42,476 nt of DNA from Escherichia phage forsur: the sequence record MN850617.1. One strand, written 5' to 3'. Positions 4,610 through 41,532 of this stretch are shown piece after piece (position 1 is the first letter of the stretch; the number at the start of each line of letters is the position of its first letter). A program made the position numbers and the translations under genes. The notes beneath the pieces are model-generated. The model was not told the DNA's origin and made no database searches. It saw only the letters and a program-made list of their open reading frames with translations.

Positions 4610-4666
4610 ATCACGCTACCGGTAGCCCCGTCAGTGGCGGGGGTGCTGCCACTCAGAGAGGATTGT

Positions 4667-4852: not shown

Positions 4853-4853
4853 A

Positions 4854-5273
4854 ATGAAAGTGACTATTATGGGAAATACAACGCACACGACTATGCCTCT
4901 TGACATTCGGCGTGCGGTGGCCGAGGGCATACAAGCCGAGCGGCCATGGTCAGACCTATCTCCCGATGTGATAGTCGAACGCATGTACGAGGCCACTGCC
5001 GCTGGTTGCGTTGACGTTTACATTACTGCCGACGACGATGGCCTCATGGCTGTTGCTCACATCGGCAGGTTATTCGATATTCATGTGGGCGAGATGGTGG
5101 TCATTATGGCCTCATACGTCTGGCCCCAGTACAGAAACCGTGGAGTGATGCGTGCCATCCTCCGTGTACTCAAAGACGTGGCCCGTTCCGAGGGTGTACG
5201 TTGGTGCGGTTACTCCCACATGGTGCGGCCTTACGTTCAGGAGTACCGCTTCATAGATTTGGAGAAACCGTAA
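4854..5273 (+). CDS. hypothetical protein (139 aa; alternative start 4869)
   Basis: ORF in track; first 14 nt are a copy of the promoter-like 14-mer ATGAAAGTGACTAT, so the true start may be the in-frame ATG at 4869. Confidence 0.6.
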   Translation: MKVTIMGNTTHTTMPLDIRRAVAEGIQAERPWSDLSPDVIVERMYEATAAGCVDVYITADDDGLMAVAHIGRLFDIHVGEMVVIMASYVWPQYRNRGVMRAILRVLKDVARSEGVRWCGYSHMVRPYVQEYRFIDLEKP

Positions 5274-5533
5274 TGGGTAGCGTAGGTAAAGTTTTCAAGG
5301 GGATTGGCTCGGTCTTTGGACTAGGTAGCCAGAAACCCCAGTACACGATTAAGACTGACCCGAATCAGGTCAAGGCTGAAACCTTGAATGCAAACTTGCA
5401 GGCTGATTTGGCGAACGATAACACCCCGACGATTCAGGCAGGTGGTCAGGTTACTTCGGCCTCCGACACTTTATCGAGCCGACGCCGCCGCACCGGAACG
5501 GGTGTAGCAAGCAACCTCGGCATCGGGAGTTAA
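5273..5533 (+). CDS. hypothetical small protein upstream of portal gene
   Basis: ATG 5273 overlaps upstream stop (TAATG) and follows GGAGAAACC; 86 aa, Gly/Ser-rich. Confidence 0.55.
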   Translation: MGSVGKVFKGIGSVFGLGSQKPQYTIKTDPNQVKAETLNANLQADLANDNTPTIQAGGQVTSASDTLSSRRRRTGTGVASNLGIGS

Positions 5534-5536
5534 CGA

Positions 5537-7102
5537 ATGGCATACGACGCGCAGAACGTCAGCTATGAATCGCTCTGGCAAAAGTACCGGGACAGTAACG
5601 TAGTCACCAAGGCTCGTGAGTACAGTCGTTACACGTTGGCCAAGCTGGTCAGTGAATACGACCGCGCCGAGGTAGACGACATGAACCGCCAGCAGATTAC
5701 TCGTGACTACCAATCTGTCGGCGCTCTGCTCGTTAACAACCTCGTCGCTCGACTGGGTGAGTTCCTGTTCCCGGCATCAGCCCGGTTCGTAAAGCTGAAA
5801 CTCGATAAGGTGTCTGACCAACAGCGGCAGCAAATGTCCAAGGTCAATCAGGCACTCATCACTATTGAAAAGGGCATCGTAGACAAAGCCAAAGAGAACG
5901 GCGGCTACGCTGACCTGTTAATGACCATTGCCCAACAAGCAGTCACTGGTAACGCCGCGCTGTACCGCGATATGGAAACTGGAACGTACCGAGTGTACGG
6001 GCTGGAATCCTTCGTGGTGCAGCGCGACGGTCGTGGCGTTGTTACGGACGCCGTGGTCAAAGAACGCATCCAGTGGGATTCCCTCGACAAAGCGTTTCAG
6101 GACATGCTGAACGCCAAGGGCTTCCGCTGTGGTGGTAACAAACGTGTGTGGCTGTACACTCGCGTCCTCCGGGTTAGGAAGGACAGTGGGCTGTATGGCT
6201 ATGAAGTAACGCAGCAGGTGGGCAACTACCAAGGCTGTGTCTACACCCCCGGTAAAGATTACTACCCTGAAAAAGTCTGCCCTTGGATTTTCCCAGTGTG
6301 GTCTTTGAAGTCTGGCGAGCATTATGGTCGCGGGATTGTCGAAGACCACGCTGGGGATTTCGCACGTCTGTCGATGCTGTCTGAGCACTCTGCTCTGTAC
6401 ATGCAAGAGGCGCTGCGTGTCCTGTGGATGCTGACTGGTTCTGGCGGCAACGTCGATGACATTGAATCCGCGCAGACTGGGCAGGTCGTACCTCTCCAGA
6501 ATGGCACCACGCTGTCTGGTCTTGAGGTCGGGGATTACCAGAAAGTTCAACAGGCCCGTGACGAAATTAACCAGATTGTGCAGCGACTCGCGCAGGCGTT
6601 CATGTACACTGGTGAGTTCCGTGACTCGGAGCGTACCACCGCAACCGAAGTGCAGCAGGTAGCAACCAGCGCCGAACGTGGGCTGGGTGGCCCGTACTCA
6701 ATGCAGGCAAAGACCCTCCAGATTCCTCTGGCATACGTCTTGCTCGCAGAGATTGACGAGTCCTCCGTACCTGACATTGTGGGCGATATCCTGACGCTTC
6801 AAGTTGAAGCTGGTCTGGATGCCCTCGGTCGCAGCATCGAAGCTGAGACGCTGATTCGTGCGCTCTCTGATTCGCAGGCAGCAATGGTTGCTGTCCAAAA
6901 CATTAACGGCGTTGCCAACGTCATTGACCCTCAGAAGGTCATTGAGGTTATCTTCGCTTCCAACGGCGTCGCGCTTGATGACTATCGTAAGTCAGCGCAA
7001 GACCTCGCAAATGAAGGTCAGCAAATCGACAGAGCAGCAGCCGCTGCCGCAGGCGTACAGCCGGGCGCAGTCGATGTAGCGCCGAACGTCGCTCAGATTT
7101 AA
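5537..7102 (+). CDS. portal (head-tail connector) protein
   Basis: 521 aa; segments FVVQRDGRGVV, KVCPWIFPV...GEHYGRGIVED and LGGPYSMQAKTLQIPLAYVLL parallel recalled T7 gp8 segments (YVVQRDAFGNVL, EACPYIPIR...GESYGRSYIEE, LGGVYSILSQELQLPLVRVLL). Confidence 0.9.
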   Translation: MAYDAQNVSYESLWQKYRDSNVVTKAREYSRYTLAKLVSEYDRAEVDDMNRQQITRDYQSVGALLVNNLVARLGEFLFPASARFVKLKLDKVSDQQRQQMSKVNQALITIEKGIVDKAKENGGYADLLMTIAQQAVTGNAALYRDMETGTYRVYGLESFVVQRDGRGVVTDAVVKERIQWDSLDKAFQDMLNAKGFRCGGNKRVWLYTRVLRVRKDSGLYGYEVTQQVGNYQGCVYTPGKDYYPEKVCPWIFPVWSLKSGEHYGRGIVEDHAGDFARLSMLSEHSALYMQEALRVLWMLTGSGGNVDDIESAQTGQVVPLQNGTTLSGLEVGDYQKVQQARDEINQIVQRLAQAFMYTGEFRDSERTTATEVQQVATSAERGLGGPYSMQAKTLQIPLAYVLLAEIDESSVPDIVGDILTLQVEAGLDALGRSIEAETLIRALSDSQAAMVAVQNINGVANVIDPQKVIEVIFASNGVALDDYRKSAQDLANEGQQIDRAAAAAAGVQPGAVDVAPNVAQI

Positions 7103-7114
7103 TTTGGAGATTAC

Positions 7115-8347
7115 ATGTCTGGTGAATACCAACCTACTGCCGCACCCGCTCCCCAAAACGTACCCGCTGGCCCGACCTATTCTCCCTCTGGTCACGGCGG
7201 TAATGATTATGGTGGAAGCCCACAGGTGGTACAGAACCCAGCGCTCGGACGCTTAGGCACGCCGATTGAACTGCCGCGAGGTGGTGCAACTCCGCAGCCG
7301 CAACAGCCGTTCGGTCAACAGCCGGGCCTGATTCCAAATCAGGAGTACAACCCGTATGCCCAACCGCAGCAGGGAAACCCAAGCCCTTACGCACCCGTAC
7401 CTCAGCAGAACCCGTATGGTGCTCCGCAACCGCAAAGCCCGTTTGCGGCACCACCTATTCCGATTAATGGGTATCCGCAACAGGGCTACACGCCTCCGGG
7501 CCAAGCGGCTCCGGCACAGCAGCCGGGCTTAGCACCGAACAACCCTGCGTATGGCTTCAACCCGTATGGGCAGCAGCCTCAGCAGCAGCAGCCGCAACAG
7601 CAGGCACCTCAGCAGCCGCAGCAGCCTTTCCAGCAGTTGCAGCCGCAGCCGGGCCAGCCGCCTCAGCAGTTCCAGAATCCGAACCTAACGGCAGAGAATC
7701 TGGCAAAGCAGGAAGGTGGACTGACCGCTGACCAAGTGGCTCAGATTTTCCCGGATGAAACCAGTCGTGCTGTGTTCCAAGGTATGGACACCATCGCCCG
7801 TGGCCAGAACATCGACCTGCTTGCAGCGTTCGGTTCTGCATACGAGCGTCGTGACCCTACTCTGGTGAATGAGCGCTATCTGGCGCAGTTCGACCCACAG
7901 ACTGTATCCATCCTCAAAGGTCAATTCGGCGCACTGGTTGCCGCTGGTCAGCAGCGCGATGCTGCAATCGAACAGCAGGTTTACCAGATGGCTGGTGGCC
8001 AAGAGCGTTGGGGTCTGGCAGTGCAGGCATTCAATACCGCTGCCGACAAAGGCACGATTGATGCTGTAGTAGCGGCTGTGAACTCCGGCGACCCTAATCA
8101 GGTACGTCTGGCAGTGAACACCATTCTCCAGTTTGCTGGTTCCCAAGGGAATATGATTCAGCGTTCTGGACAAAGTTTGACGCCTAATGGTGGCGGTCAA
8201 GCACCTCGTGACGTTATGACTAACGAGGCATTCCGTCAGCATCTTGGCTGGCTTGAGCAGGCGCATCCTGTTGGTTCCCCGGAATACAACAAGCATTACG
8301 CCGTACTGGTAGAGCAGCGCCGTCAGGCCAAAGCTCAAGGTTACTAA
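7115..8347 (+). CDS. scaffolding protein with long N-terminal Pro/Gln-rich low-complexity region
   Basis: Sits between portal and capsid genes; C-terminal part (AGGQERWGLAVQAF...) resembles recalled T7 gp9 (AGGRERFDALYNHL). The N-terminal ~180 aa are P/Q/N/Y-rich repeats. Confidence 0.8.
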   Translation: MSGEYQPTAAPAPQNVPAGPTYSPSGHGGNDYGGSPQVVQNPALGRLGTPIELPRGGATPQPQQPFGQQPGLIPNQEYNPYAQPQQGNPSPYAPVPQQNPYGAPQPQSPFAAPPIPINGYPQQGYTPPGQAAPAQQPGLAPNNPAYGFNPYGQQPQQQQPQQQAPQQPQQPFQQLQPQPGQPPQQFQNPNLTAENLAKQEGGLTADQVAQIFPDETSRAVFQGMDTIARGQNIDLLAAFGSAYERRDPTLVNERYLAQFDPQTVSILKGQFGALVAAGQQRDAAIEQQVYQMAGGQERWGLAVQAFNTAADKGTIDAVVAAVNSGDPNQVRLAVNTILQFAGSQGNMIQRSGQSLTPNGGGQAPRDVMTNEAFRQHLGWLEQAHPVGSPEYNKHYAVLVEQRRQAKAQGY

Positions 8348-8368
8348 TTTCTTTCGTAAGGATTTCCC

Positions 8369-9361
8369 ATGGCCGACAACTACTATCAGCCGAATCAGTT
8401 CCGTCCACACTGGGGTGGTGCGAACTCTGATAACGACATTCACCTTGAGGTGTATGACCGTGATGTGCAGACCCAGTTCATCTACAACTCCATCTTCCGC
8501 AGCGGCCTGACCAACTTCAAGTCTGTTGCGAACCAGTCCAACACTTGGCGTGGCGACCGTCTCGGCTCCGTGTCTGTGAAGGGCCGTAAGTCTGGTCAGT
8601 CTCTGGACAACCAGCCAGTTCGCTCTGAGAAGCTGATTGTCACTGTGGATACCGTGTCTTACATCCGTATCCCGATTGACTATCAGGACGACTGGACTGC
8701 GCCGGACTTCCGTGCTGAGCTGACCCGTAACATGGGTACTGCACAGGCGAAAGCGTTCGACCAAGCGCACGTCATCCAGCTCCAGAAGTCTGCTGACTTC
8801 GTTCCTCCGACCTCTCTGGCAGGCGCGTTCAACTCCGGTATCAAGGAGAAAGTAACGCTGACTGGCACCGTGGCTTCTGAGGAAGACGATGCAAGCGCAC
8901 TGGTGCATGGTCACAAGAAAGTCATTGAGGCGTTCATTCGCCGCGACGCCGACCTTGGCCGTCTGGTAACGCTGATTGACCCGGCGTGGTTCAGCATCCT
9001 GCTGGAGCACAAGAAACTGATGAACGTTGAGTTCACTGGTGGTCGTGGTGTGAACGACTTCGCTATGCGTCGTGTTGCTTACGTGAACGGTATCCGTATC
9101 ATCGAGAGCAACGCATTCCCGCAGGCAGCAATCACCAACCACATCCTCGGTGCCGACTTCAACGTCACCGCCGAAGAAATCAAGCGTAAGATGATTATCT
9201 TCGACCCGTCTCTGGCTCTGGTCACTGTCGAAGCCCAACCGCTATTCAACCGCGTGTGGGATGACGAACGTGAACTGACCAACGTTCTGGACAGCTTCCA
9301 CATGTACACCGTGGGTCAGCGTCGTCCTGACGTGGTAGGCGTGGTTACTACCGAAGCCTAA
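8369..9361 (+). CDS. major capsid protein
   Basis: 330-aa ORF in the conserved position after the scaffold gene, followed by a hairpin terminator as in T7-like phages; RBS AAGGA upstream. Confidence 0.85.
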   Translation: MADNYYQPNQFRPHWGGANSDNDIHLEVYDRDVQTQFIYNSIFRSGLTNFKSVANQSNTWRGDRLGSVSVKGRKSGQSLDNQPVRSEKLIVTVDTVSYIRIPIDYQDDWTAPDFRAELTRNMGTAQAKAFDQAHVIQLQKSADFVPPTSLAGAFNSGIKEKVTLTGTVASEEDDASALVHGHKKVIEAFIRRDADLGRLVTLIDPAWFSILLEHKKLMNVEFTGGRGVNDFAMRRVAYVNGIRIIESNAFPQAAITNHILGADFNVTAEEIKRKMIIFDPSLALVTVEAQPLFNRVWDDERELTNVLDSFHMYTVGQRRPDVVGVVTTEA

Positions 9362-9371
9362 TGGTAAACTC

Positions 9372-9394
9372 GAAGCCCTTCATTGAGGGGCTTC
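9372..9394 (+). terminator. hairpin downstream of capsid gene (terminator candidate)
   Basis: GAAGCCC-TTCATTGAG-GGGCTTC, a perfect 7-bp stem followed by TATGATTAT; position is analogous to the T7 terminator after gene 10. Confidence 0.5.
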
Positions 9395-9427
9395 TATGAT
9401 TATCGTTACTCACCCAAAGGAGGGTGC

Positions 9428-9616
9428 ATGAAAGTCATTGTTGCTGATAACGCTGGTGTTTCCTACCACATACCTGAGAGTCACATCTTCTGCTACTACG
9501 CAGATGCCACTGACCCTACGAAGACCACCGTTGTCCACGCAGCGAACGGCACGCAAATCTACAAGAGCACCTTCGACGGTACGCCTGCGGATTTGGATGC
9601 CATACTTACCAGTTAA
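9428..9616 (+). CDS. hypothetical protein (62 aa)
   Basis: ATG 9428 preceded by AAAGGAGGG; lies between capsid and tail tubular A genes. Confidence 0.5.
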   Translation: MKVIVADNAGVSYHIPESHIFCYYADATDPTKTTVVHAANGTQIYKSTFDGTPADLDAILTS

Positions 9617-9628
9617 TGGAGACATGCT

Positions 9629-10177
9629 GTGACTCTACTCGAAGCAGTTAACATTGTTCTTCGGGCATTGTCTGAGCACACCGTATCATCCACAGAGATT
9701 CGTAACCCGTCCGTCACGCTTGCCCTTGACAAGATTAACGTGGCGACGGAGGAAGTTCTCACTGATGGCTGGTGGTTCAACAATATCCGAATCACCATTC
9801 CACGCGAGTCGGATGGTCGAGTCAAATATCCCGCAGACGCACTGAGCTTCATCCCCGATGGGTTTGAGTGTATTGTGCGAGGCGGGTATCTTTACAACGC
9901 GCAATCCCAAACCTTTGTTTTTACTGAGGATGTTCCGGGATTGGTTACTTATGATTTGGGGTGGGATGACCTACCGAGTCCTGTTCAACGACTCATTGCA
10001 TATCAAGCAGCTATCTCAGCTTACGCCGACGACATTGGGGATAACCCTCCGGCCAGCGTGACAGGCGGCTATGCCATGGCGTTGCAGCAGTGCCAGTCAA
10101 TCCATACCCGTCAACGTCGATTCAATGCACGCCAGCGTCAGAGCTGGTGGCGATATGAGAGTGCTCGGAGAGGATAA
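9629..10177 (+). CDS. tail tubular protein A
   Basis: 182 aa, GTG start; N-terminus VNIVLRALSEHTVSS...DKINVATEEVLTDGWWFN parallels recalled T7 gp11 (VNDILASIGEPPVS...NKINRQIQSRGWTFN). Confidence 0.85.
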   Translation: MTLLEAVNIVLRALSEHTVSSTEIRNPSVTLALDKINVATEEVLTDGWWFNNIRITIPRESDGRVKYPADALSFIPDGFECIVRGGYLYNAQSQTFVFTEDVPGLVTYDLGWDDLPSPVQRLIAYQAAISAYADDIGDNPPASVTGGYAMALQQCQSIHTRQRRFNARQRQSWWRYESARRG

Positions 10178-12621
10178 TGCCAGTATACCAAGGCGCTTAT
10201 AAATCCATCCTCGGCGGCGTGAGCCAGCAGGTCTATACTGACCGCCAGCTATCGCAGGTTGAGGAACAGGTCAATATGACCTCTGACACCGTGCGTGGCC
10301 TGCGTAAACGCCCCGGCACCCGCGACACTAAACTGGTGGACTCCACCAACGCCAGTGTCTGGAGCCTTGGTAACTTTGGCCACCTGCGCTTTTACACAAC
10401 CAACCTCGGATGGGGTGTCACTACCTTCGTGGTCAATACGCTGACCGGGTACGTCACCTCATTCGTTGAGACTGAGACTGTCCAATTCATGGGGCAGTCC
10501 AACTACCTGATTACCTCCAACCCTGACGACATTGTATTCACGACCGTGGGCAACACGATGTATGTGGCCAACTGTTCTAAGCTGCCTGTTTTGCTTGAGA
10601 ACGAAACGCGAATGAATCCGGGTCGCCGGGGTTACTTTTTCGTTTTGGCTGGTGCCTATGGCAAGCAGTACACTGTTCGCATCGAGACGAGCGGCGGCGC
10701 ATACAGTGCCACGTACACTACACCGGATGGTACAGACCCCGGTGACTCTACACAAGCCACACCAGAGTACATCATTGGTCAGTTGAAGACTCAGCTCGAT
10801 ACTGCCATCGGAGGCGCTACCGGGCTTGAGGTTGTGCAGACGGACGGGGCGTACATGTACCTCCAGACGACTGCCGCTTACACTGACCTGAACGTGTCCA
10901 CGAACACTGGCTCAACGTATGCCATCGCATCAAACACTCACAGGGTTGACCTGACCACCAAGCTCCCGGCACGCCTGCCGACTCAGGCTGGTGGCTTCAT
11001 CATGACCGTGGGTGATGACAGCTTTGCGCAATACTTCCAGTGGGATTACGCCAACTCGCGCTGGGTGGAGAAGGGTGCCTACGGCTCACCGACCGGGATT
11101 AACCCCAGTGGTATGCCGCTGGTATTCAACACGACCAGCACGCTCAATCAGCACTCGTTCGCTCAAGGCTCTTGGCCGGGGCGTACTGCTGGCGATGACA
11201 AGACCAACGCCATTCCTGCATTCACCGACGCCAATGGCGTGGGTATCACTGGGCTGGCATCGTTCCAAGGTCGCCTGATTATCTTCTCTGGCCCGTACAT
11301 CACCATGGGTTCCAGCGACAAGGATGACCGGACTAACTTCTTCCGCACCACTGTGACCCAGTTGCTGGAGAGTGACCGCATTGAGTTCACCGCGTCGAGC
11401 TTCGCTGGCGCATCGTTCCGGTATGGCATCCCGTTCAACTCTGACCTGATTCTGGCCAGTGAAGAACATCAGGCCGTCATCCCCGGACGTAACCAGATTC
11501 TGTCACCGAGCAACGCCACGGCTGTGCTCACCTCGACGTACCAGATGGACACTGGCGTAGCGCCGACCACCTCTGGCCGCAGCCTGTATTATTCGTACCC
11601 GCGTTCGAACAGCTCGTTCTCCATCAAGGAGATGCTGCCGTCCGGCTACACGGATTTGCAGTACGTGAGTCAGGACGTGACCGACCACCTGCCGACCTAT
11701 CTGGAAGGGGCTAACAGCTACATCTCTGCCAGCACCACGAACAACATCGTCGTGTTTGGCTCGACCACTGAGCGCTCGACACTGTACGTGAACGAGTACC
11801 TCTGGTCAGGGGATGAGAAGGTAATGTCCTCGTGGCATCGCTGGGAGCTGTACGGCACTATCCACGCAGCGTGGTTCGTCCGTGAGGTTCTGGTGGCGCT
11901 GGTTGAGCAGAATGGCCACATGCACATGCTCACGCTGTCTATGCGTGATTCACCAGACCCGACTGACCCAGCACGATTCCTGCCTGCGATGGACTATGCG
12001 CAGAACATGACCGTGACCAACCCAAGCACTGATAGCTCGTACATCCAGTTCGCTGCCGATGGCGTGCAGAAAGCGCTGTGGGATATTATTCAGGCCCGGT
12101 ATCTGGCCGATGGCAACACTGACTTCATGACCACGGTTGTGCCGTCCGGCGACTACATTGGTGCCGAGGTCGGTATCAAGTCAGTGGATACCACGAACCG
12201 CCGTCTGTACCTGCAACCATCTTATGGCTCCACAACTCTGTGGGTTGGCCTGCGCTTCACAGCACTGTTCAGTCCGACGCCGCCGCGCATCTTCAATGGT
12301 GACGGCTCGTACATGGACGTGAACAAGATGGTCGTGATGTTCTACAACTTCACCCTGCGGTACACCAGCCTGTTCAATATCACGGCGACTGACCGGGGAG
12401 CATACGACGCCTACAACATTGAGTCCAGCCCGATTCGTTACACCAGTAAGGAACTCGGATTGGAATCTGCAATGCTGGCGAAACGTGCGCACCTGAAAGT
12501 TCGCATGGGCCTTGAGGTCGAATCCAGCAGCATGGTCGTTGATTCGTCTACGGCTGGCGACCTGAATATTCAGGGGCTGGGTTATTACGTCAAGTTCTAC
12601 AATCGCACTCGGAGAATTTAA
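10177..12621 (+). CDS. tail tubular protein B
   Basis: 814 aa; N-terminus KSILGGVSQQ...GLRKRP parallels recalled T7 gp12 (KNLKGGISQQ...GLQKRP); conserved position. Confidence 0.9.
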   Translation: MPVYQGAYKSILGGVSQQVYTDRQLSQVEEQVNMTSDTVRGLRKRPGTRDTKLVDSTNASVWSLGNFGHLRFYTTNLGWGVTTFVVNTLTGYVTSFVETETVQFMGQSNYLITSNPDDIVFTTVGNTMYVANCSKLPVLLENETRMNPGRRGYFFVLAGAYGKQYTVRIETSGGAYSATYTTPDGTDPGDSTQATPEYIIGQLKTQLDTAIGGATGLEVVQTDGAYMYLQTTAAYTDLNVSTNTGSTYAIASNTHRVDLTTKLPARLPTQAGGFIMTVGDDSFAQYFQWDYANSRWVEKGAYGSPTGINPSGMPLVFNTTSTLNQHSFAQGSWPGRTAGDDKTNAIPAFTDANGVGITGLASFQGRLIIFSGPYITMGSSDKDDRTNFFRTTVTQLLESDRIEFTASSFAGASFRYGIPFNSDLILASEEHQAVIPGRNQILSPSNATAVLTSTYQMDTGVAPTTSGRSLYYSYPRSNSSFSIKEMLPSGYTDLQYVSQDVTDHLPTYLEGANSYISASTTNNIVVFGSTTERSTLYVNEYLWSGDEKVMSSWHRWELYGTIHAAWFVREVLVALVEQNGHMHMLTLSMRDSPDPTDPARFLPAMDYAQNMTVTNPSTDSSYIQFAADGVQKALWDIIQARYLADGNTDFMTTVVPSGDYIGAEVGIKSVDTTNRRLYLQPSYGSTTLWVGLRFTALFSPTPPRIFNGDGSYMDVNKMVVMFYNFTLRYTSLFNITATDRGAYDAYNIESSPIRYTSKELGLESAMLAKRAHLKVRMGLEVESSSMVVDSSTAGDLNIQGLGYYVKFYNRTRRI

Positions 12622-12623
12622 AT

Positions 12624-13358
12624 ATGGGTTGGGCAGCTTTTGCTAAAGCTGGTGCCGACGCCACGAACTCTTTCATCACCACCTATGCTCAAGGACGAGC
12701 AGAGCGTGCGCAGATGAAAGCTGTGCAGGCAGAGAACGAACGCCTGAACAAGCAGACGTGGCAGGCAATGGGCCAGCGCATCAACACCGTCAATCTCCAG
12801 CGTGGCCTACTCCGGCAGCAAACTGGCACCGACCTGTACAACATCAACAAGGAAGCTAACCGGGCAGCAGGTGCCAGCATCAACAACGCCGCCGCCGCTG
12901 GTATTGAAGGTGCATCGGTTGACGAATCAGTCAACGATATCAGTCGTCAGAATCAGGAAAGCCAAGCGCAGACCCGGTTCAATGAGCAGATTCAGGAGAT
13001 GAATCTGGACACGAGCATTGAGGATATTGTGAACACGGCAGTCGCCGCACAGCGATACTCTCAGAAACCTGCAAGCAACAGCATGATTGTTGGCCGCGCC
13101 ATCGGCGTGTCTGCAATGCAGTTCGCTTCCAGCCTCGCGCAGACCAGCTTCGACTACATGCCTACTGAGGGTGCCAAAGGCACAGGTACTCAGGGTGGTA
13201 GCGGATTGGGCGGCCTGTCCGGGAATACTGGTGCGAGCACGGTTCAGCTCGGTACTACCAATTGGATGCAGAAAGCTGGGGAATTTGACCCGGTTCCTGC
13301 TCAGTACAGTTCTAATCGCTACACGGGCTACAGCTCCGGTAGCTTGTTTGGGGGCTAA
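12624..13358 (+). CDS. internal virion protein (gp14-like position)
   Basis: 244 aa, first of three consecutive ORFs between the tail tubular B and tail fiber genes; call is by position and size. Confidence 0.65.
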   Translation: MGWAAFAKAGADATNSFITTYAQGRAERAQMKAVQAENERLNKQTWQAMGQRINTVNLQRGLLRQQTGTDLYNINKEANRAAGASINNAAAAGIEGASVDESVNDISRQNQESQAQTRFNEQIQEMNLDTSIEDIVNTAVAAQRYSQKPASNSMIVGRAIGVSAMQFASSLAQTSFDYMPTEGAKGTGTQGGSGLGGLSGNTGASTVQLGTTNWMQKAGEFDPVPAQYSSNRYTGYSSGSLFGG

Positions 13359-13360
13359 TC

Positions 13361-16057
13361 ATGCCAATTATGCGTGACCAGCGTGGCGCAAATCTCAACG
13401 CTGCGCAACAGGGCGTACCGAATGTGCAGCAGGCTCAGACTCCGTTTAGTCTCGCAGGCCGCGATACTCGCATCGACACGTTCCCTACTGAGTCCATCCA
13501 GCGCGTACTCAACATGGCCAGTCAGTTGGCTGGCCGTGTCACTGAGCGTGCTAACGAGGAAGAATATCTCAAAGGTGCCAACGCCGCCGCGAGCGGTAAG
13601 GCTGTTGAGGATTTGGATTCGAACTGGCTGACTGCACAGTTCCAGAAAGCTGGTTATAACGACCAATTCAAGCGTATGCAGATGGCTGGCGTAGCCTCTG
13701 AAATCTCGGCCAACATGACCGAGTACGCTAAAATGTCTCCGCAAGACTTCCTGAAAGTCATTGATGAGAAGACTACCGGGCTGTTCGACAATACCGATGG
13801 TATGACCCTTCGCGGTCGCCAGTCGCTGCTGGAGAACCAGCTCACGTTCAGCAACACCCTGATTCGCACGCAGGCTGCGCAGCACGGTAAGTATCTGGTT
13901 GAGCAGCGTGCAGCAATGTACAACTCTCAGGGTAACACTCTGGTTACTCTGGCGGCTCAGGCCAAAGCATCCGGCGACGGCGGTGCGTATGCAAACGCCA
14001 CGGCTGCTACCATGGCTTGGGCTAAGTCCATTCTGGCCGATGACAAGCTGCCGCTGGAAACCCGGCGCACGCAGGTCACGTCCATGATGGGCCTGATGCT
14101 TTCGCAGGATTTGCGTACCCCGGTCGAGACGGCGGTTAACTCCGGCCTGTTCAACGACCTGCCTGCTGAGGACTTGGCCAAGCTGCAAGGTCAGATTCGT
14201 GAATCCAAATCTCGTACCGAGGTTCAGGATAACATGGGTCTGCTGGAGGCAAAGGGTCAGCTTGATGCTCGTCAGGCTGTGTTTGGTGACGTTACGCCGG
14301 GCCAGTACGGTCAGGTGCTCCAGCAGTTGGTGGACAACAAGCTCATCACTGCTTCCGGGTACAGCTCTGCTATCGAGTCCTTCTACAAGGATTACGCCAA
14401 GCAAGCCAAGGCCAGCCAGCTCGGTCAGGCATATGCCACCGGGAACCAGACGTACATGCTCCAGCAGGGCGCGAGTGAGCAGGATGGTGCTGACGCATTC
14501 ATCAAAGCTCGCATGAAGCAGCCGGGCGCTACGGCCAGTTCTGTGGCATTCGACCTGCTGCAAGTTGGCGCACAGACTGGCTTCCCATCTGCGTACAAAT
14601 CCGCAGCCAAACTGATTGAGCCATCCCTGTCGAACTTCGGCACCGTGGATGAGATGAACCCGGATGCTGCCCGTACTGTCACTGGTCTGATTGACCGTGT
14701 GACTGTGGCAGAAAATCAGGGTGACAAGACCGCATGGACTAAACTCCTGTCCGGTCTGTCTGAGGAAAACCAAGAGAAGATGGTGTACATGCGCGAGCAG
14801 ATTAAAGCTGGCCGCACCATCGACCAAGCTGGTCAGGGTTACATCAAGCAGCAGCAGGACTACGCTGGCTTGACCCCTGCTCAGAAATCCCAAATCTTAA
14901 CACAGCGTCAATCTGACGTGAACAGTGTAGTCAACTCACTTGAGTCCCAAGGCTTCTTATCTCGCACTTGGCAGGGCTTAGCTGGTCTGTTCTCAGACAC
15001 TCAGCAGAACCTGTTCCAAGCTCGCGTCGCATCTGGTGACATTACTGCTGCTCAGGAAATGTCGGAGGTGTCTGCCGCGTACCGCGAAGAACTGCAAGCC
15101 GTGGTGCTCAAGAACCCGAACATCACGAAAGACGGTATGGAAGCGCTTGCGTCTGCGAAGCTGGCCAACCGCGTGCTGCGCGTCGGGGAGACTACGTTCA
15201 GTCCCGGCTCTGTGCTTATCGCTCCGAGAAACCAAACTGTTCAGTCTATGCTTGGCCTGCCTGCTGACGTGGCACCTGACCGTATCGGTCGCGCCATCGC
15301 CTCACTTGACCAGAGCAAGGCACCAGAAGGTTTCGAATCGTCGTACTCGTTTATGCCCGATGGCTCACTGAACGTTCAGTTCTTCAACAAGACGGGTGAC
15401 GTTTCCCCGAACAGCTACCGGATTACGCCGCAGGCTATTCAGGAACGTATCCGTGAAGACGACCGTGCAGCCGCCACCGCAAATAACGAAGTCTACGGTG
15501 ATGGGAAACTCTTTGTCGATAAGTCCAGCAACATCGGGATTCGTGTCAATGGCGTGAATACTGCCGGGGTTGATGAGCAGCGTATGCTCTATGCCCGTGG
15601 TAAGCTGATTGAGTTCGAAGGTATCCGCAACACCACGTATCGTGACAGCACTGGCGTCCAGACCAACGGCATCGGTATCTCTGACCGCAGCCCGTACTTC
15701 TCTGAGGGTCAGGCTTCTGGTATGCGCGGTGGTACTGAATGGTCGCCTCGTACAATTCACGACACGTTCGTCAATCACACCAACATGGTAGCCCGGCAGA
15801 TGCCCGGTACTGCGGCAGCGCTGGGGTGGAGTCGTGACAACGACGCCCAGTTCCAGTTCATGATGCAGATTGGTTATCAGGCTGGCGCAAGCTGGTATCG
15901 CAACGAGGGTGCGTACAGCAAGCTGGCTGATGCTATCCGTGTTGGCGACCGTGACAAGGCTGTTCAGGCTCTGGCTGCGACTCCGGCTTACAAGCTGTCG
16001 CAGGATGAGCGCAAGCAGTATTACGTCCAAACTCTACTCGCAGGTATGCAGGAATGA
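13361..16057 (+). CDS. internal virion protein (gp15-like position)
   Basis: 898 aa; call is by position and size. Confidence 0.7.
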   Translation: MPIMRDQRGANLNAAQQGVPNVQQAQTPFSLAGRDTRIDTFPTESIQRVLNMASQLAGRVTERANEEEYLKGANAAASGKAVEDLDSNWLTAQFQKAGYNDQFKRMQMAGVASEISANMTEYAKMSPQDFLKVIDEKTTGLFDNTDGMTLRGRQSLLENQLTFSNTLIRTQAAQHGKYLVEQRAAMYNSQGNTLVTLAAQAKASGDGGAYANATAATMAWAKSILADDKLPLETRRTQVTSMMGLMLSQDLRTPVETAVNSGLFNDLPAEDLAKLQGQIRESKSRTEVQDNMGLLEAKGQLDARQAVFGDVTPGQYGQVLQQLVDNKLITASGYSSAIESFYKDYAKQAKASQLGQAYATGNQTYMLQQGASEQDGADAFIKARMKQPGATASSVAFDLLQVGAQTGFPSAYKSAAKLIEPSLSNFGTVDEMNPDAARTVTGLIDRVTVAENQGDKTAWTKLLSGLSEENQEKMVYMREQIKAGRTIDQAGQGYIKQQQDYAGLTPAQKSQILTQRQSDVNSVVNSLESQGFLSRTWQGLAGLFSDTQQNLFQARVASGDITAAQEMSEVSAAYREELQAVVLKNPNITKDGMEALASAKLANRVLRVGETTFSPGSVLIAPRNQTVQSMLGLPADVAPDRIGRAIASLDQSKAPEGFESSYSFMPDGSLNVQFFNKTGDVSPNSYRITPQAIQERIREDDRAAATANNEVYGDGKLFVDKSSNIGIRVNGVNTAGVDEQRMLYARGKLIEFEGIRNTTYRDSTGVQTNGIGISDRSPYFSEGQASGMRGGTEWSPRTIHDTFVNHTNMVARQMPGTAAALGWSRDNDAQFQFMMQIGYQAGASWYRNEGAYSKLADAIRVGDRDKAVQALAATPAYKLSQDERKQYYVQTLLAGMQE

Positions 16058-21542: not shown

Positions 21543-21848
21543 ATGGCATCCGTGAACAAGCAGCTCGACGGGCTGCACCGGATGCTGGTGGAGTATCTGT
21601 CCGACCGCTTGGCCGACGCACGTAGGAAAGATGAGAACGGTAATATCATCGAACCTATGGCGGCGGCTGAGCTGTCCGTGCTTCGCCAGTTCCTGAAAGA
21701 CAACGGCATTCAGGCTGATAAAGACCACGCTGACGACCTGCTCGCGCTGCAAGAACAGCTCAACAACGAGAAGACCGAGGCTGGCCGCAAGGATATCATG
21801 ACTGCTGCCATCAACTCAATCGCAGAAGATAGCGGGATGATGCACTAA
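21543..21848 (+). CDS. terminase small subunit (putative)
   Basis: 101-aa ORF immediately upstream of the large terminase gene; call is by position and size. Confidence 0.6.
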   Translation: MASVNKQLDGLHRMLVEYLSDRLADARRKDENGNIIEPMAAAELSVLRQFLKDNGIQADKDHADDLLALQEQLNNEKTEAGRKDIMTAAINSIAEDSGMMH

Positions 21849-25335: not shown

Positions 25336-25871
25336 TGACTAACTTTGAAATCTGTATGAAGTTCACCGGGCTGGCCGAGGGTGGATACACCAAGCTGCCC
25401 GGTGACACTGGAGGGGAAACCAACCATGGAATTAGTGACGCTCGTGATGGGAAGCTGGATGGCAGAGCTTGTGGTGTCCCTACTGGGCTTGGCGGCACTG
25501 TGTGCGTGCCTATCAAAGACCTCACCAAAGAGCAAGCCGAGGCAATCTATCGCCGGGACTACTACAGCCCCATCAGAGGTGACGAGCTTCACCCTGCGAT
25601 TGCATGTGCCGTGTTTGATTACGGCGTCAACTCCGGCATCTCCCGTGCTGCTAAAGCTCTACAGCGGGTATGCGGCGTTGCACAGGACGGGGACATTGGT
25701 ACTGTCACCTTGGAAGCAGCACAACGTCTGGAACCTCACGCCGCAGCAGCAGCCATCTGTGACCTTCGTATTGCGTTCCTAAAGGCTTCTAAAGCCCCGA
25801 CAGTCGTTCGGTATAGGGATGCCTTGGTTGCTCGTGCAAAACGCTGTAGCGCTTACTGTGCGACGCTGTAG
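25335..25871 (+). CDS. endolysin, GH108-type muramidase domain with peptidoglycan-binding-like C-terminal region
   Basis: N-terminus FTGLAEGGYTKLPGDTGGETNHGIS matches the recalled GH108 signature (EGGY...D.GG.T..GI); C-terminal AAKALQRVCGVAQDGDIGTVT resembles PG-binding repeats; no signal peptide. Confidence 0.8.
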   Translation: MTNFEICMKFTGLAEGGYTKLPGDTGGETNHGISDARDGKLDGRACGVPTGLGGTVCVPIKDLTKEQAEAIYRRDYYSPIRGDELHPAIACAVFDYGVNSGISRAAKALQRVCGVAQDGDIGTVTLEAAQRLEPHAAAAAICDLRIAFLKASKAPTVVRYRDALVARAKRCSAYCATL

Positions 25872-26039
25872 GGGCATCTGAAAGCTGACACATTGAACAG
25901 GCCGTGGGTGCAATACCCCGGCTTGAAAATTGAACGTTTATGCGTGGGCCTCCCTCGACCCGAATGACCGCGCGTACCCCCATGACGTGTGCGCGGATTA
26001 GCCTCGCGACGTGCGCGATATTGCTCGCGTGCGCTGCGC

Positions 26040-26450
26040 GGCGCGTCAAGAGGATTGCCTGCGTGCGGTATAGCTCGTGCGTGTCGCGTTTCATCGTCTG
26101 CCGTGTGGCGTGCTGTGCGCTGTCCTGCTGGCTGTGCTGTGCGGTGCTGTCCTATGGGGACGCTCTGCGCTGGCTGTGCTGTGCTGCGTGCTGCGCTCGG
26201 TCGGGCGGGTATCTGTCTCTTTTGCCGTGGTACGCTCTGCGCCGTGGTGGTGCTGTGTGGTGGTGGTGCTGCCGTGGTGCTGTCCTGTCTGCTGGTCTAC
26301 TGTCTGCGCCGCCAGCTCTGCGCGTCATGCTCTGCTACCTGCTGCTACTGTCCTACTGCGTTCACTGGCTGCCGCCTGTCATCCTGTCGGATTCCATCCG
26401 TTGCCGTTCCGCGCTCGCTTGTTTCGGCTGCGCCGCGCTCGCTCTGCGTA
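26040..26450. repeat. A-depleted (C/G/T only on + strand) low-complexity block with degenerate GCTG/CTGTG/GGTG repeats; candidate terminal-repeat region
   Basis: Adenine is nearly absent on the + strand over ~400 bp, so no + frame contains a stop; non-coding position between the last late gene and the early promoters. Confidence 0.6.
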
Positions 26451-26462
26451 TCTAGCGATACA

Positions 26463-26485
26463 TATCACTATAGTCACTTTCATAA
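26463..26485 (-). promoter_or_regulatory. inverted exact copy of the T7-class promoter-like element at 4585..4607 (would fire leftward into the A-depleted block)
   Basis: + strand TATCACTATAGTCACTTTCATAA is the reverse complement of 4585..4607 (23/23). Confidence 0.4.
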
Positions 26486-26499
26486 TTATCTATTGATAT

Positions 26500-26590
26500 C
26501 AGTAACTTATAACCTATCTGATAACGGTATCTATCCTATGCAATAACCTATTCAATCAAATATTTATTCCTAATGATTACAGTAACTTAT
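26500..26590. repeat. AT-rich segment with 11-bp direct repeat CAGTAACTTAT (26500..26510 and 26580..26590)
   Basis: Read directly; copies are 80 bp apart, each preceded by TGAT; candidate origin or packaging iterons. Confidence 0.4.
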
Positions 26591-26622
26591 CCACTATTTG
26601 AGCTATTCAGTGAAAATAAATC

Positions 26623-26651
26623 TTGCAATGCTGTTTGTGATTTGCTGTAAT
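26623..26651 (+). promoter_or_regulatory. host sigma70-type early promoter P1
   Basis: -35 TTGCAA (26623..26628), 17-bp spacer, extended -10 TGcTGTAAT (hexamer 26646..26651); A-rich UP-like tract upstream. Confidence 0.6.
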
Positions 26652-26726
26652 TCTCATCGCCGGGTAGCAGAACATCGCTACACGGTGGCAAGACGGTAAC
26701 ACTGCTCTTTAACAATCTGGAGTGTA

Positions 26727-26755
26727 TTGACAAGGCAAGCTCACTATGCTGTAAT
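26727..26755 (+). promoter_or_regulatory. host sigma70-type early promoter P2
   Basis: -35 TTGACA (26727..26732), 17-bp spacer, extended -10 TGcTGTAAT (hexamer 26750..26755). Confidence 0.65.
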
Positions 26756-26863
26756 GCTTCCAGTCAGCCAGACAAGCCAAACAGTCATGGATAAAGACGT
26801 TAAAACCCGCGCAGGCTAACTGGTACGGATTATTCATCTCAGAATGGGCGCTGAATAAAACGG

Positions 26864-26892
26864 TTGACAGGATGAAACGAGTATGCTGTAAT
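26864..26892 (+). promoter_or_regulatory. host sigma70-type early promoter P3
   Basis: -35 TTGACA (26864..26869), 17-bp spacer, extended -10 TGcTGTAAT (hexamer 26887..26892); AATAAAA upstream. Confidence 0.65.
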
Positions 26893-26944
26893 ACGCTCCA
26901 GATTGACAGGGCAAGCAAGCCTGACAGTCAGTAGTAAAAAGTAG

Positions 26945-26973
26945 TTGACAAGCTGAATACACTGTGTTGTAAT
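26945..26973 (+). promoter_or_regulatory. host sigma70-type early promoter P4
   Basis: -35 TTGACA (26945..26950), 17-bp spacer, extended -10 TGtTGTAAT (hexamer 26968..26973); GTAAAAAG upstream. Confidence 0.65.
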
Positions 26974-27451
26974 CAGCACCGAGTTGGAAGGATGCAAAAC
27001 ATCCTGCTCTGAGTGAACGCAAACTGGCCGCGTAGTGTCACGGCTCACTGGGTATCCGCCGCAGGTTGGAACTGGGTGAGGCATCGCCGAAAGGCAACGG
27101 TATCGCAACAATGCTAACGCCGTAGGGGTAGCGCCTGATGCAAGGTAACGGAGAAGCGCGATAGACGCAGCGCAGTATCAGTACAATACCAAACGTCTTA
27201 TAAGGCGCGGAGTATAGCGGGTAGGTAGTCAAACGGCTTGTTAGCTGGCAACGGTGAGCAAGATACGCGACGGACTGCTGGAAGACTCCTGAGAGTGGAT
27301 GCAGACAATATCCACAGCGCGAAATGGGCGGGGCGATTTTTCAGGGTAGTGAATCCGACAAGCCAATCAATGCCACTGAGTGCAGACTGTACGGCGCGTC
27401 ACAATGGGTTCACTATCCACCTGAAAATAGCCAACAACTGGAGAAATAACT

Positions 27452-27844
27452 ATGTACCGTATCTATGCAAGCGCATATCGTCAGAACAACGCTGAGTGTG
27501 TTAATCTGGCGCTTCATTGCAAGGCACTGCGAACGGTGCAGGATATGTTCGGAGTGATTCCGGTCACACTGACAGGCAAGTTCGACAATGCGTATGAGTT
27601 AAGCATGGTCTTTCCTGTCGATGGAATCTACGAAATCAGACAGGCTGTTAAGCTGTTCTGTAAAGCCTTTGAACAGGACTGCATCATGGTAGTGACCGAT
27701 GACAATGATGCAATCTTCATGGATTCACCATATCCGGGCAAGCCTGCTGGCAAGTTTGTCAGCAAGACAGAAGCGGAGATGGAAGCCGGGCAGTTCACTG
27801 CTTGGACTTACGATGGTGAGCAATTTTGGGTAGTGGAGGCGTAA
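27452..27844 (+). CDS. hypothetical early protein (130 aa), first gene after the leader
   Basis: ATG 27452 with GGAG 8 nt upstream; ORF in track. Confidence 0.7.
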   Translation: MYRIYASAYRQNNAECVNLALHCKALRTVQDMFGVIPVTLTGKFDNAYELSMVFPVDGIYEIRQAVKLFCKAFEQDCIMVVTDDNDAIFMDSPYPGKPAGKFVSKTEAEMEAGQFTAWTYDGEQFWVVEA

Positions 27845-31587: not shown

Positions 31588-31833
31588 ATGGCTAAGTATG
31601 ACGTATACAAAGACGGTGAGGGTGACTGGACTATCGTACCGGAAGGGCAGCAGATTGTAGCCCCGGTCGATGTGATTGCAATGAACGGCGCGGCGGCTGA
31701 GACACTGGCTGATGTGCAGCGCATCGCAACCACCAAGCGTGCAGGCTTCGAAGCTAACCGCACGCATGTCAAGTCGCAGGCTGTCATCAATCGCTTCGGC
31801 CCGTATGAACTGGCCGGGACTATTGAAGTGTGA
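31588..31833 (+). CDS. hypothetical protein (81 aa)
   Basis: ATG 31588 with GAGAGG upstream; preceded by hairpin 31537..31558 and motif TGTCACTATCAAA. Confidence 0.65.
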   Translation: MAKYDVYKDGEGDWTIVPEGQQIVAPVDVIAMNGAAAETLADVQRIATTKRAGFEANRTHVKSQAVINRFGPYELAGTIEV

Positions 31834-31890
31834 TAAGCTACTGCCCCTGCGTGCCGGGGGCAGTGTCATTATCAAACGATGGAGGTGGGT

Positions 31891-32988: not shown

Positions 32989-33213
32989 GCTCACCGTAAC
33001 CAAATCACCCACCGGATTATTCTGGTGGGTAGTTGATAAGCTGCAACCAAATAAACCTTTGGCTGTGCGTGATACAAAGTGGGAAGCCGAGAGTAAACTC
33101 GAAGACCTTCAACGTATTATGCGGAATGTTATTCCAGCTTAGCCATCTACTCATGCCAGTTATTATTTAGCTGGCATTATGAAGGTGACTATATTGGACA
33201 ACCCGGAGGAAAT

Positions 33214-40557: not shown

Positions 40558-41532
40558 ATGAGTAGACTTCAACGCTTACTCCACAATGCAGAGGAACTTG
40601 ATGACCAGTTTGATGGTTACGTGTCTGGTCGTATCTTGCTGTGCGATGCTGACTCCACGGTCTACGTCGCGGCAGCAACCACGAAGAACATCGAGACAGC
40701 GAAGACACGATTCTGTTCCGGGGTACTGACCGCCAAGTTCCTCGCCAATGCTCAGTCAGTTCGTATCGAGTTGACCGCTGCGGAGTGTACGAAAGCTGGA
40801 CGGTACAAGCTGCGTGGGGCCAAGCTGTACCAAGGCAACCGAGACAAAGACCGCAAGCCCGGTCTGGTCGAACCGTTGCGTAAAGCAATTGGCCGGAACA
40901 TGTTCAACGTCCCGGATGGTGAGGACTGGTACGTCCACCTGAACTTTGAGTTCGAGGCAGACGATACCTTAATCATGGATGCGTGGACGATTGGCATTAA
41001 CGATGCAGTAATCTACAGCGCGGATAAAGACCTGCGTTGTTGGCCGGGCAGATTCCTTGACCCGTATGACAACAAGGTGCTGGAGCCGTGCGTTGGTATT
41101 GGCAGGCTGTGGTGGCATGAAACGAAAAGCGACAAGTCGCTGGTCGGCCATGGGCCTATCTTCTTTTGGGCGCAGATGTTGATGGGCGACACCGCCGACA
41201 ACATTGCTGGCGTGAAGAAGGTTGGTAAGCAGACTGCCTACGACATGCTGGTTGATTATCAAGAGATTGATGATGAATCAGTGGTTGCGGAATTGGTGCT
41301 GCGTGAGTACATGCAGCGTGACCAGAACCCGTGGCCGGAGGCAGTGGCGCTGTGGCTGTACCGCACGCCGACCTACTCATTCGCAGCCCACTTGAACACG
41401 CTGACCTTGAGCAAGGAGCTGCGTGTCTGGCTGCATAAGAAACTGGGTGAGGAATGGTATGCGGAAAGTGACTGGCGCGACTCTGTTGCAGCTTCGGAAG
41501 AATGCGATGGGTTGCAACTGCCCACTCTGTGA
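40558..41532 (+). CDS. 5'-3' exonuclease (T7 gp6-like)
   Basis: ILLCDADSTVYVAAA, FEADDTLIMDAW...AVIYSADKDLRCWP and FFWAQMLMGDTADNIAGV parallel recalled T7 gp6 segments (ILVMDGDWLVFQAM, LEGDDVMGVI...AVIISCDKDFKTIP, WHLFQTIKGDITDGYSGI). Confidence 0.85.
   Translation: MSRLQRLLHNAEELDDQFDGYVSGRILLCDADSTVYVAAATTKNIETAKTRFCSGVLTAKFLANAQSVRIELTAAECTKAGRYKLRGAKLYQGNRDKDRKPGLVEPLRKAIGRNMFNVPDGEDWYVHLNFEFEADDTLIMDAWTIGINDAVIYSADKDLRCWPGRFLDPYDNKVLEPCVGIGRLWWHETKSDKSLVGHGPIFFWAQMLMGDTADNIAGVKKVGKQTAYDMLVDYQEIDDESVVAELVLREYMQRDQNPWPEAVALWLYRTPTYSFAAHLNTLTLSKELRVWLHKKLGEEWYAESDWRDSVAASEECDGLQLPTL

Follow-up and report, generated by a model that had tools for sequence, protein, structure and literature searches.

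A predicted leftward phage promoter and a repeated 21-nt box in the left-end control region of Escherichia phage forsur, with a near-identical copy in satellite-like bacterial islands

Layout of the Left-End Region

The window analysed here is the whole 42,476-nt stretch of sequence record MN850617.1 (Escherichia phage forsur), and the element under study is an AT-rich, non-coding segment of it that carries an 11-bp direct repeat. The segment belongs to a T7-type left-end control region, which is notable for a conserved, unannotated phage promoter predicted to fire leftward, and for the near-identical copy of this promoter and one of the repeats in satellite-like islands of bacterial chromosomes. 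According to the taxonomy of the matching records, forsur is a bonnellvirus of the J8-65/LIMEzero group (Autographiviridae, T7 supergroup). The 1.6 kb of the window around the repeat showed 86–96% identity to 19 Bonnellvirus phage records. The long reading frames are on the + strand throughout, and GC skew, which is dominated by this single coding strand, was uninformative as an indicator of an origin. The early genes (from 27452) are followed by those for DNA metabolism, RNA polymerase (811 aa), structural proteins, terminase and endolysin (end at 25871). Because of this gene order, the record was taken to be a circular permutation of a linear genome, with the concatemer junction and the early control region in the non-coding interval 25872–27451.

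For J8-65, a direct terminal repeat of 259 bp is annotated (repeat_region 1–259 and 40723–40981), which begins at TCGACCCGAA, 72 bp past the endolysin gene. The homologous position in forsur is 25955, where terminase is predicted to cut and the terminal repeat to begin; the extent of this repeat to about 26202 is likewise predicted by homology (Table 1). The motif that follows, TATCTGTCTCTTTT, is kept at the same place in four bonnellviruses (forsur, J8-65, Lidtsur and altidsur), and we take it to resemble the T7 class II pause/termination signal ATCTGTT. In T7, this signal sits just right of the terminal repeat. The direct repeat studied here is found 240–380 bp right of TATCTGTCTCTTTT, and its location, right of a terminal repeat with a class II-like pause signal, is the one expected beside a concatemer junction.

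From the predicted cut to the AT-rich segment, the + strand is so depleted of A that no stop codon is possible on either strand. An A-depleted tract is present in LIMEzero and in the bacterial island as well. Open reading frames of 139–185 aa are open in all three + frames of the tract, and relatives have 'hypothetical proteins' annotated in it (Kc261 QQM15444.1, Lidtsur gp55, HHU8 XMR00743.1, ROV85 gp21-23), which are probably artefacts.

To the right of the segment, four matches to host-type early promoters (three perfect, one with 2 mismatches) are clustered within 26623–26973, and their LIMEzero homologues are annotated as putative host promoters. The first-pass annotation, which had placed the direct repeat between the terminal block and the early promoters, was accurate as to the order of the elements. 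A generic promoter/terminator scan of 25800–27600 gave no match; it misses the early promoters because TGTAAT has G at position 2 and so fails the rule of the scan. An insertion of 86 bp between early promoters 1 and 2 (aligned to ~26700) was seen in Ec1-ASingh and BHUENT7 only. The last early promoter is separated from the SAM hydrolase gene by a non-coding leader of ~480 nt (26975–27451), which is conserved among the relatives and has no Rfam match.

Table 1. Features of the forsur left end, dispersed promoter copies and island counterparts.
Feature	Position	Strand	Basis or remark
Promoter copy right after the RNA polymerase gene (2124–4559)	4587–4607	+	21-nt identity
Fourth, weaker motif copy	4854–4867	+	Overlaps the start codon of gene 4854–5273
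Conserved block over the predicted left genome end (…CCCGGCTTGAAAATTG…GGGCCTCCC, directly followed by TCGACCCGAA)	25917–25959	+	J8-65 homology
Predicted direct terminal repeat	25955–26202	+	Homology to the J8-65 repeat; single collapsed copy in the record
A-depleted tract, ~500 bp, 6–8% A on the + strand	25955–26461	+	Base composition; AT skew −0.575
TATCTGTCTCTTTT, like the T7 class II pause/termination signal	26210–26223	+	Directly after the predicted repeat end
Portable cis module: end of the A-depleted tract, leftward promoter and box 1	26346–26511		Island matches
AT-rich segment (G 8%, A+T 73%)	26462–26622		~260 bp right of the predicted terminal repeat
Predicted phage-RNA-polymerase promoter, 5'-ATTATGAAAGTGACTATA followed by GTGATA	26463–26486	−	Points left toward the terminal repeat
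Box 1, CTATTGATATCAGTAACTTAT	26490–26510 (11-mer 26500–26510; similarity to 26521)	+	Repeat comparison, relatives' alignment
IHF core consensus match between the boxes, AATCAAATATTTA	26554–26566	+	Sequence reading
Box 2, CTAATGATTACAGTAACTTAT	26570–26590 (11-mer 26580–26590; similarity to 26601)	+	Repeat comparison, relatives' alignment
A-tract UP-like element	26610–26622		Before the first early promoter
Four tandem host-type early promoters, TTGACA/TTGCAA-N17-TGTAAT	26623–26651, 26727–26755, 26864–26892, 26945–26973	+	
Weaker promoter copy, ATGAAGGTGACTATATTGG	33179–33197	+	After a hairpin, ahead of the primase/helicase genes
E. coli NCTC11023 island (L031)	NZ_LS483297.1, 926000–941300 (about locus 380–15300)		
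Island rightward motifs	L031 (NCTC11023) 4960, 5088, 5146 (+); L035 4341, 4498; L037 4833; others		

Two Conserved Boxes in the AT-Rich Segment

The 11-mer CAGTAACTTAT occurs exactly at 26500–26510 and at 26580–26590 on the + strand, and the distance of 80 bp given by the first-pass annotation was confirmed. The TGAT reported before each copy was also found; it is separated from the core by 2 nt (TGATAT before CAG in the first copy and TGATTA before CAG in the second). The repeat is therefore a box of 21–32 nt, TGAT-NN-CAGTAACTTAT, in which the similarity of the copies spans 32 nt with 25 identical positions (26490–26521 versus 26570–26601). The description of the surroundings as the most AT-rich part of the genome was correct. 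The lowest G+C content, 26.7%, was determined at 26458–26607, as compared with ~55% genome-wide and 37–40% in the next-lowest 150-bp windows.

The sole further near-match to CAGTAACTTAT in the window is at 31833–31843 on the minus strand, with one mismatch. At up to one mismatch, 0.28 matches are expected from whole-window shuffles, and three were reached in none of 100. When the 176-bp AT-rich segment was shuffled 5,000 times with the dinucleotides preserved, an exact direct repeat of at least 11 nt arose in 1.5% of the cases. The significance of the repeat from the window alone is thus moderate, and it is conservation that makes the repeat convincing.

Conservation of the boxes was assessed in an alignment of the window with 16 relatives (17 genomes). 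The first-pass annotation would have given up its reading if the repeats were not conserved in relatives; both boxes were present in 13 of the 16. Several relatives, for example altidsur (27/30 over 30 nt), have the 21-mer CTAATGATTACAGTAACTTAT exact in both copies, which are 79–80 bp apart. The core of box 2 is diverged in aldrigsur (CATACACTTAT), and box 1 is degenerate in the clade of J8-65, smaasur and Lidtsur. Two alleles of box 1, CTAATGATTACAG… and CTATTGATATCAG…, differ at three positions with no intermediates; both occur in phages and in islands, the latter being carried by the window and four relatives. No piece of the segment is better conserved than box 2, in which 12/21 columns are invariant; a gap of 33 bp separates its end from the −35 of the first early promoter. 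Together with the adjacent promoter-like motif, box 2 forms the best-conserved part, the flanks being more variable. LIMEzero, from the sister genus, has related boxes in the same two places: AATACATACACTTAC adjoins the promoter, and ACTTATCACTATTT precedes the first −35 by 38 bp. A short palindrome is embedded in each box allele (TTACnGTAA or TGATATCA) and points to a dimeric protein. The spacer between the boxes holds a match to the IHF core consensus, WATCAANNNNTTR. Its ATCAAA and TTTA are invariant in the 17 genomes, and the full consensus is lost in the altidsur subclade.

The first-pass annotation interpreted the copies as iterons, typical of replication origins or of protein-binding sites for end recognition. 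What remains of this reading is a conserved cis-acting, non-coding site near the genome end; the copies are not iterons in the usual sense. In a classical iteron origin, a phage initiator would bind the repeats and melt the AT-rich stretch, and direct repeats beside promoters, where the G+C content of the genome is lowest and offers a potential AT-rich unwinding element, would suit such a mechanism. However, only two copies were found, 80 bp apart and not in helical phase, instead of at least three regular copies of 17–22 bp. Copy 1 is lost in the J8-65 clade, and a single copy is present in the islands. The annotations of J8-65, altidsur, Lidtsur and LIMEzero contain no initiator-type gene but many early genes of unknown function, and T7-group phages initiate replication with their own RNA polymerase, at a promoter beside an AT-rich stretch, and not with an initiator protein. 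An iteron origin is therefore very improbable. Replication initiation or end recognition/processing is nevertheless the most plausible class of function, because the segment is better conserved than its flanks and is partly copied by the islands.

Several known identities of the boxes were considered. A DnaA box could be read in box 2 (TTATCCACT, 8/9 to the consensus) in the forsur subclade only and was rejected. As to IHF sites, the box 1 allele of the window, TATCAGTAACTTA, fits WATCARNNNNTTR, but the commoner allele, TTACAGTAACTTA, does not, and this identity was not supported. Leftward sigma-70 promoters within the boxes are weak candidates: the minus strand reads ACTGTAAT, 8/9 to the TGCTGTAAT of the phage's −10 region, and a −35 (4/6) was found only for the common allele of box 1 and is absent from the window's own allele. 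A tandem duplication of an 80-bp promoter unit was rejected as well, since the other short repeats of the segment are out of register. As a separate observation, ATTACAGTAA in box 2 (26576–26585) is the reverse complement, at 9/10 positions, of TTGCTGTAAT in the −10 region of the first early promoter (26642–26651); it follows that the minus strand of the boxes agrees at 8/9 positions with the −10 region of the early promoters of the phage itself.

A Predicted Leftward Phage Promoter Next to Box 1

A predicted phage promoter on the other strand, at a distance of only 6 bp, escaped the first-pass annotation: six bases to the left of box 1 (copy 1), ATGAAAGTGACTATAGTGATA is read on the minus strand (26483–26463). 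This sequence is identical over 21 nt to 4587–4607 of the + strand, 28 bp past the stop codon of the RNA polymerase gene. Together with the two weaker copies listed in Table 1, this makes a set of four sites, and the same four homologous sites were found in altidsur, J8-65 and Lidtsur. The core of the motif changes in concert: it is GTGACTAT at all four sites of the window, GTGTCTAT at all four of altidsur, and GTAACTGT at three sites of J8-65. The copy at 4854 co-varies with the other copies in altidsur, J8-65 and LIMEzero. A change in this copy alters the N-terminus of the encoded protein, which is MKVTI, MKVST or MKVSV.

In the record of Pantoea phage LIMEzero (NC_015585), a 'putative phage specific promoter' is annotated at two homologous intergenic + sites, TTTAAAGGCAATCACTAAGG and TATAAAGGCAAGCACTATGA. 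At its left end, we found an unannotated minus-strand copy, TATGAAGGCAAGCACTAAGG (637–656), which sits on the border of the A-depleted tract and the AT-rich segment, as in the window. The four-site set is unannotated in every bonnellvirus record examined. The three intergenic motif sites coincide with the three spots of lowest G+C in the forsur genome. The motif contains ACTATAG (CACTAAGG in LIMEzero), which is common to the promoters of T7, SP6 and T3. The orientation was read as leftward because the 5' part of the motif is conserved, the 3' part is variable, and ACTATAG is shared with T7 and SP6; by analogy with the G that follows TATA in T7 and SP6 promoters, the predicted start is the G at 26468.

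Because the specificity bases of dispersed sites change in concert, both within genomes and across genera, the motif at 26483–26463 (−) is very probably a phage promoter firing toward the terminal repeat. We infer promoter activity, as well as the binding of a protein to the boxes. The residues of the RNA polymerase specificity loop differ between genomes with different promoter cores (four sequences compared), which is compatible with a promoter but not decisive.

The boxes were considered as extra phage promoters, their minus strand and the promoter core having AAGTNACT in common. This identity was rejected, since they do not co-vary with the promoter set of the genome: the boxes stay CAGTAACTTAT in altidsur, whose promoters have GTGTCT, and read CAGTGACTTAT in J8-65, whose promoters have GTAACT. 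The lack of co-variation also indicates that RNA polymerase is not the protein that binds the boxes.

A scan of IMG/VR with a 19-mer gave one further bonnellvirus and five chance matches in unrelated DNA. In a literature search, no analysis of bonnellvirus promoters, origins or packaging sites was found. A structured leftward RNA was considered and rejected, the fold of 26466–26340 (−) having z = −0.55 and the region 25800–27500 having no Rfam match. Directly before the promoter copy at 33179 there is a hairpin, ATGCCAG-N11-CTGGCAT (33148–33175), and the pair occupies the same position as the annotated terminator and 'phage specific promoter' of LIMEzero (7255–7313). With the primase/helicase genes following, the hairpin and the promoter mark the early/middle boundary. 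The analogy with T7 phi1.1A/B makes the region 33148–33197 another candidate origin.

A Module Shared with Chromosomal Islands

When the AT-rich segment was compared with complete E. coli genomes, 52 chromosomes matched its first 72 bases only, at 92–98.6% identity. With a wider query, matches were obtained in 54 of 5,426 complete E. coli genomes (~1%), and all of them stop at 26510–26511, the last base of box 1. The block shared with strain NCTC11023 is 166 bp long and 97.6% identical to 26346–26511 of the window. The module defined in this way (~170 bp) consists of ~115 bp of leftward-transcribed tract, the promoter, the six bases and box 1; it is also present in Kluyvera and Enterobacter islands at 85–88% identity. 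On both sides of it, the DNA of phages and islands is unrelated, and box 2, which is absent from the islands, is phage-specific. Because the module is near-identical in the islands while its flanks are unrelated, there is strong evidence that box 1 acts in cis with the leftward promoter. The leftward-transcribed part of the module also contains a second exact 11-nt direct repeat, CCGCGCTCGCT (26409–26419 and 26433–26443, 24 bp apart), which is invariant in the aligned phages and islands.

The exact end of phage–island homology at box 1 is what a recombination joint would produce, and the alleles upstream of it are shared between phages and islands in a mosaic fashion. The repeat could accordingly be functionless, i.e., such a joint or the leftover of a local duplication that persists inside a constrained promoter region, and its frequency in the local shuffles leaves some room for chance. 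This explanation is improbable, as the 21-nt identity of the copies has been maintained across many diverged genomes while the spacer diverged, and the related boxes of LIMEzero, AATACATACACTTAC and ACTTATCACTATTT, stand at the same positions.

The NCTC11023 module lies in a 1.26-kb gap within an island of ~15 kb between tRNA-Gly and a tyrosine integrase. The products of the island include a resolvase, a DEAD/DEAH helicase, an HNH endonuclease, an endonuclease VII-like protein and a 'capsid protein'. The latter showed 56% identity, over the full length, to the major capsid protein of the phage (E = 2e-132), and its nearest phage relatives among viral contigs are bonnellviruses and LIMEzero. 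The capsid gene was found in 59 of the 5,426 complete E. coli genomes, E2348/69 among them, and the module in 54. A translated comparison of the NCTC11023 island with the phage revealed the capsid gene and the module only; a terminase homologue was not detected, so this island, the one compared, must rely on the cis sites of a helper. It has a 44-bp homologue of 25917–25959, the predicted cut-site block. The block, CCCGGCTTGAAAA(A)TTG…CCTCCCTCRAC, was seen in each of the nine islands examined, whose hosts are E. coli, Enterobacter, Kluyvera, Kosakonia and Trabulsiella, and in every phage, LIMEzero included.

A packaging role that would be independent of the promoter was also considered. The boxes could be sites for the terminase small subunit, whose gene lies at 21543–21848, like the R sites of lambda cosB, with a bend introduced by host IHF; the segment itself would then be where packaging is specified. 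They are near the predicted terminal repeat, the two direct boxes flank the IHF-consensus match with its invariant core bases, and the island compared lacks a detectable terminase while all the islands copy the cut-site block and those of E. coli also copy box 1. Satellites are known to copy the packaging sites of their helpers, as P4 does with the cos of P2. On the other hand, the distances of the boxes to the predicted end, 535 and 615 bp, far exceed that of cosB to cosN. The cut-site block is retained in island subtypes that lack box 1, the altidsur subclade has lost the IHF consensus, and the islands have a single box. Taken together, we find a terminase site of this kind unlikely.

Just right of box 1, the islands have two or three rightward promoter-like motifs ahead of a helicase operon, so that box 1 stands between leftward and rightward phage-type promoters ~50 bp apart. 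The rightward arrays of the islands comprise two to five motifs with different cores (GCTACT, GTATCT, GTGACT, GTGTCT, GCATCT), and the leftward promoter of the islands varies at the same specificity positions as in the phages (GTGACT, GTGTCT, GCATCT). From their sequences, the arrays look matched to several helper polymerases.

The position of box 1 between divergent promoters would also suit operator or activator sites for a regulator, of the host or among the early phage proteins, with no direct role in replication or packaging. Such a protein might, for instance, repress or stimulate the first host-type promoter and the leftward phage promoter. In the phage, box 2 covers about −57 to −88 relative to the start predicted for the first early promoter, and box 1 about −22 to −42 relative to the leftward start, and the palindrome in each allele is typical of dimeric regulators. 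In spite of this agreement, a regulator is rather unlikely: no candidate for it is at hand, and the ~115 bp of leftward-transcribed tract that are co-conserved with box 1 in the islands go unexplained. An 11-bp deletion in the altidsur subclade shifts box 2 by one full turn relative to the promoter, but it alters the distance.

Metagenomic sequences gave 11 matching contigs, of which the six longer ones were examined. The island was located inside longer contigs with no terminal overlap, and these contigs provide no evidence on island packaging either way. A literature search found no description of such islands, which is no proof of novelty. From their gene content and cis sites, we infer that the islands are helper-dependent elements, i.e., satellites of bonnellvirus-type phages, with which all these features agree.

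Proposed Role of the Boxes and the Promoter

We propose that the two 11-mers are the cores of two ~21-nt boxes for a sequence-specific protein, located in an AT-rich control region between divergent promoters. Box 1 would be coupled to the leftward promoter 6 bp away, which would fire into the A-depleted tract and the terminal repeat. The module may act like phiOL and phiOR of T7, which are secondary origins composed of a promoter and an AT-rich stretch: the phage RNA polymerase would open or prime the DNA beside the concatemer junction, and synthesis or processing would then run through the terminal repeat, serving replication and the duplication of the repeat for packaging. A T7 promoter/origin beside the junction is reportedly required for concatemer processing. 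The box may dock a protein encoded by the helper or the host, the terminase small subunit being one example and a replisome-loading factor another. The same protein would occupy box 2, which lies at a distance of 80 bp, 33 bp ahead of the first host-type promoter, and the two boxes would bracket an easily melted spacer of 25% G+C lying behind two divergent promoters.

Of the features of a T7-type origin, a predicted promoter for the phage RNA polymerase is present within the element. An AT-rich stretch downstream of it was not found, the transcribed side having ~63% G+C and 6% A; the AT-rich stretch is upstream of the promoter here and downstream in T7 origins, where it is the place of the RNA-to-DNA transition and of helicase loading. 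This arrangement weighs against the proposal, and so do several other observations. Box 1 is degenerate in the J8-65/smaasur/Lidtsur clade. Because the islands keep box 1 only, the two-box design is not needed for the role of the module there. Island subtypes L032 and L035–L039 have no leftward module, with rightward promoters only and the cut-site block retained, so the module is not indispensable for the island family. The near-identity between phages and islands could partly result from frequent recombination and not from selection. Finally, the protein that binds the boxes is not the RNA polymerase, with whose promoters they do not co-vary. With these points taken into account, we assign a probability of about 0.4 to a protein-binding box that forms, with the promoter, a promoter-driven replication/concatemer-processing module, a reading based on analogy with T7.

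Significance of the Module

To our knowledge, the origins and packaging signals of T7-supergroup phages other than T7 and T3 are essentially unmapped. The leftward phage promoter with the 21-nt box, ~170 bp in all, offers a small and defined candidate for such a signal. Islands with the module, the end site, helper-type promoters and a capsid homologue are found in ~1% of complete E. coli genomes, and the well-studied strain E2348/69 is among the carriers.

As a tentative reading, box 1 and the leftward promoter may be the module through which a helper is recognised by satellites of a hitherto undescribed family, parasites of virulent T7-supergroup phages of the bonnellvirus/LIMEzero type in E. 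coli, Enterobacter, Kluyvera, Kosakonia and Trabulsiella. Such islands would be switched on by the helper RNA polymerase through their arrays of promoter variants. Their own version of the capsid protein would be used to assemble or remodel capsids, and the end site copied from the helper would direct the cutting and packaging of their DNA. In that case, the islands would carry a portable replication/packaging signal whose original, on the side of the phage, is the AT-rich segment of forsur. If the islands do parasitise virulent T7-like phages, they would represent a new helper–satellite system in a model organism, with implications for phage therapy, for resistance to such phages and for gene transfer by lytic phages.

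Comparison with Known Systems

The left end of T7 has the same general layout as that of forsur: a terminal repeat, a pause-like motif, a phage promoter by an AT-rich stretch, and tandem strong host promoters. In both the T7 record and the window, the tandem host promoters precede an anti-restriction gene. T7 also has a leftward promoter, A0, but A0 is a minor promoter for the host (E. coli) polymerase, while that of forsur is of the phage type. The phiOL promoter of T7 points right with the AT-rich stretch downstream, whereas the forsur promoter points left with the AT-rich stretch behind it. The two conserved 21-nt boxes of forsur have no counterpart in T7, and the sequence similarity is limited to ACTATAG. 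A further analogy is with the secondary origin at phiOR, which is reportedly required for concatemer processing and packaging. There, too, the terminal repeat is transcribed from a phage promoter adjacent to the junction. The forsur arrangement would be its mirror image, located right of the repeat and firing left instead of left of it and firing right.

The annotated promoters of LIMEzero occupy positions homologous to forsur 33179 (between the terminator and the primase gene) and 4587 (directly after the RNA polymerase gene). The left-end minus-strand copy (LIMEzero 637–656, forsur 26483–26463) is unannotated in LIMEzero and in the bonnellvirus records examined. Lambda cosB, with its R sites for gpNu1 and an IHF site, resembles the forsur segment in having repeated short sites near the genome end with an IHF-consensus match between them. 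Unlike those of cosB, the forsur boxes are more than 500 bp from the predicted cut, are only two in number and are direct, and the IHF match is not present in all relatives.

The islands share with known satellites (P4 with the cos of P2, the PICIs, and the Vibrio PLE with ICP1) an integrase, a size of ~15 kb and a tRNA gene, together with helper-like end/packaging sequences and helper-specific promoters. They differ in that the helper is presumably a virulent phage of the T7 supergroup that encodes an RNA polymerase of its own, and in that the islands contain an array of promoter variants as well as a homologue of the major capsid protein of this helper.

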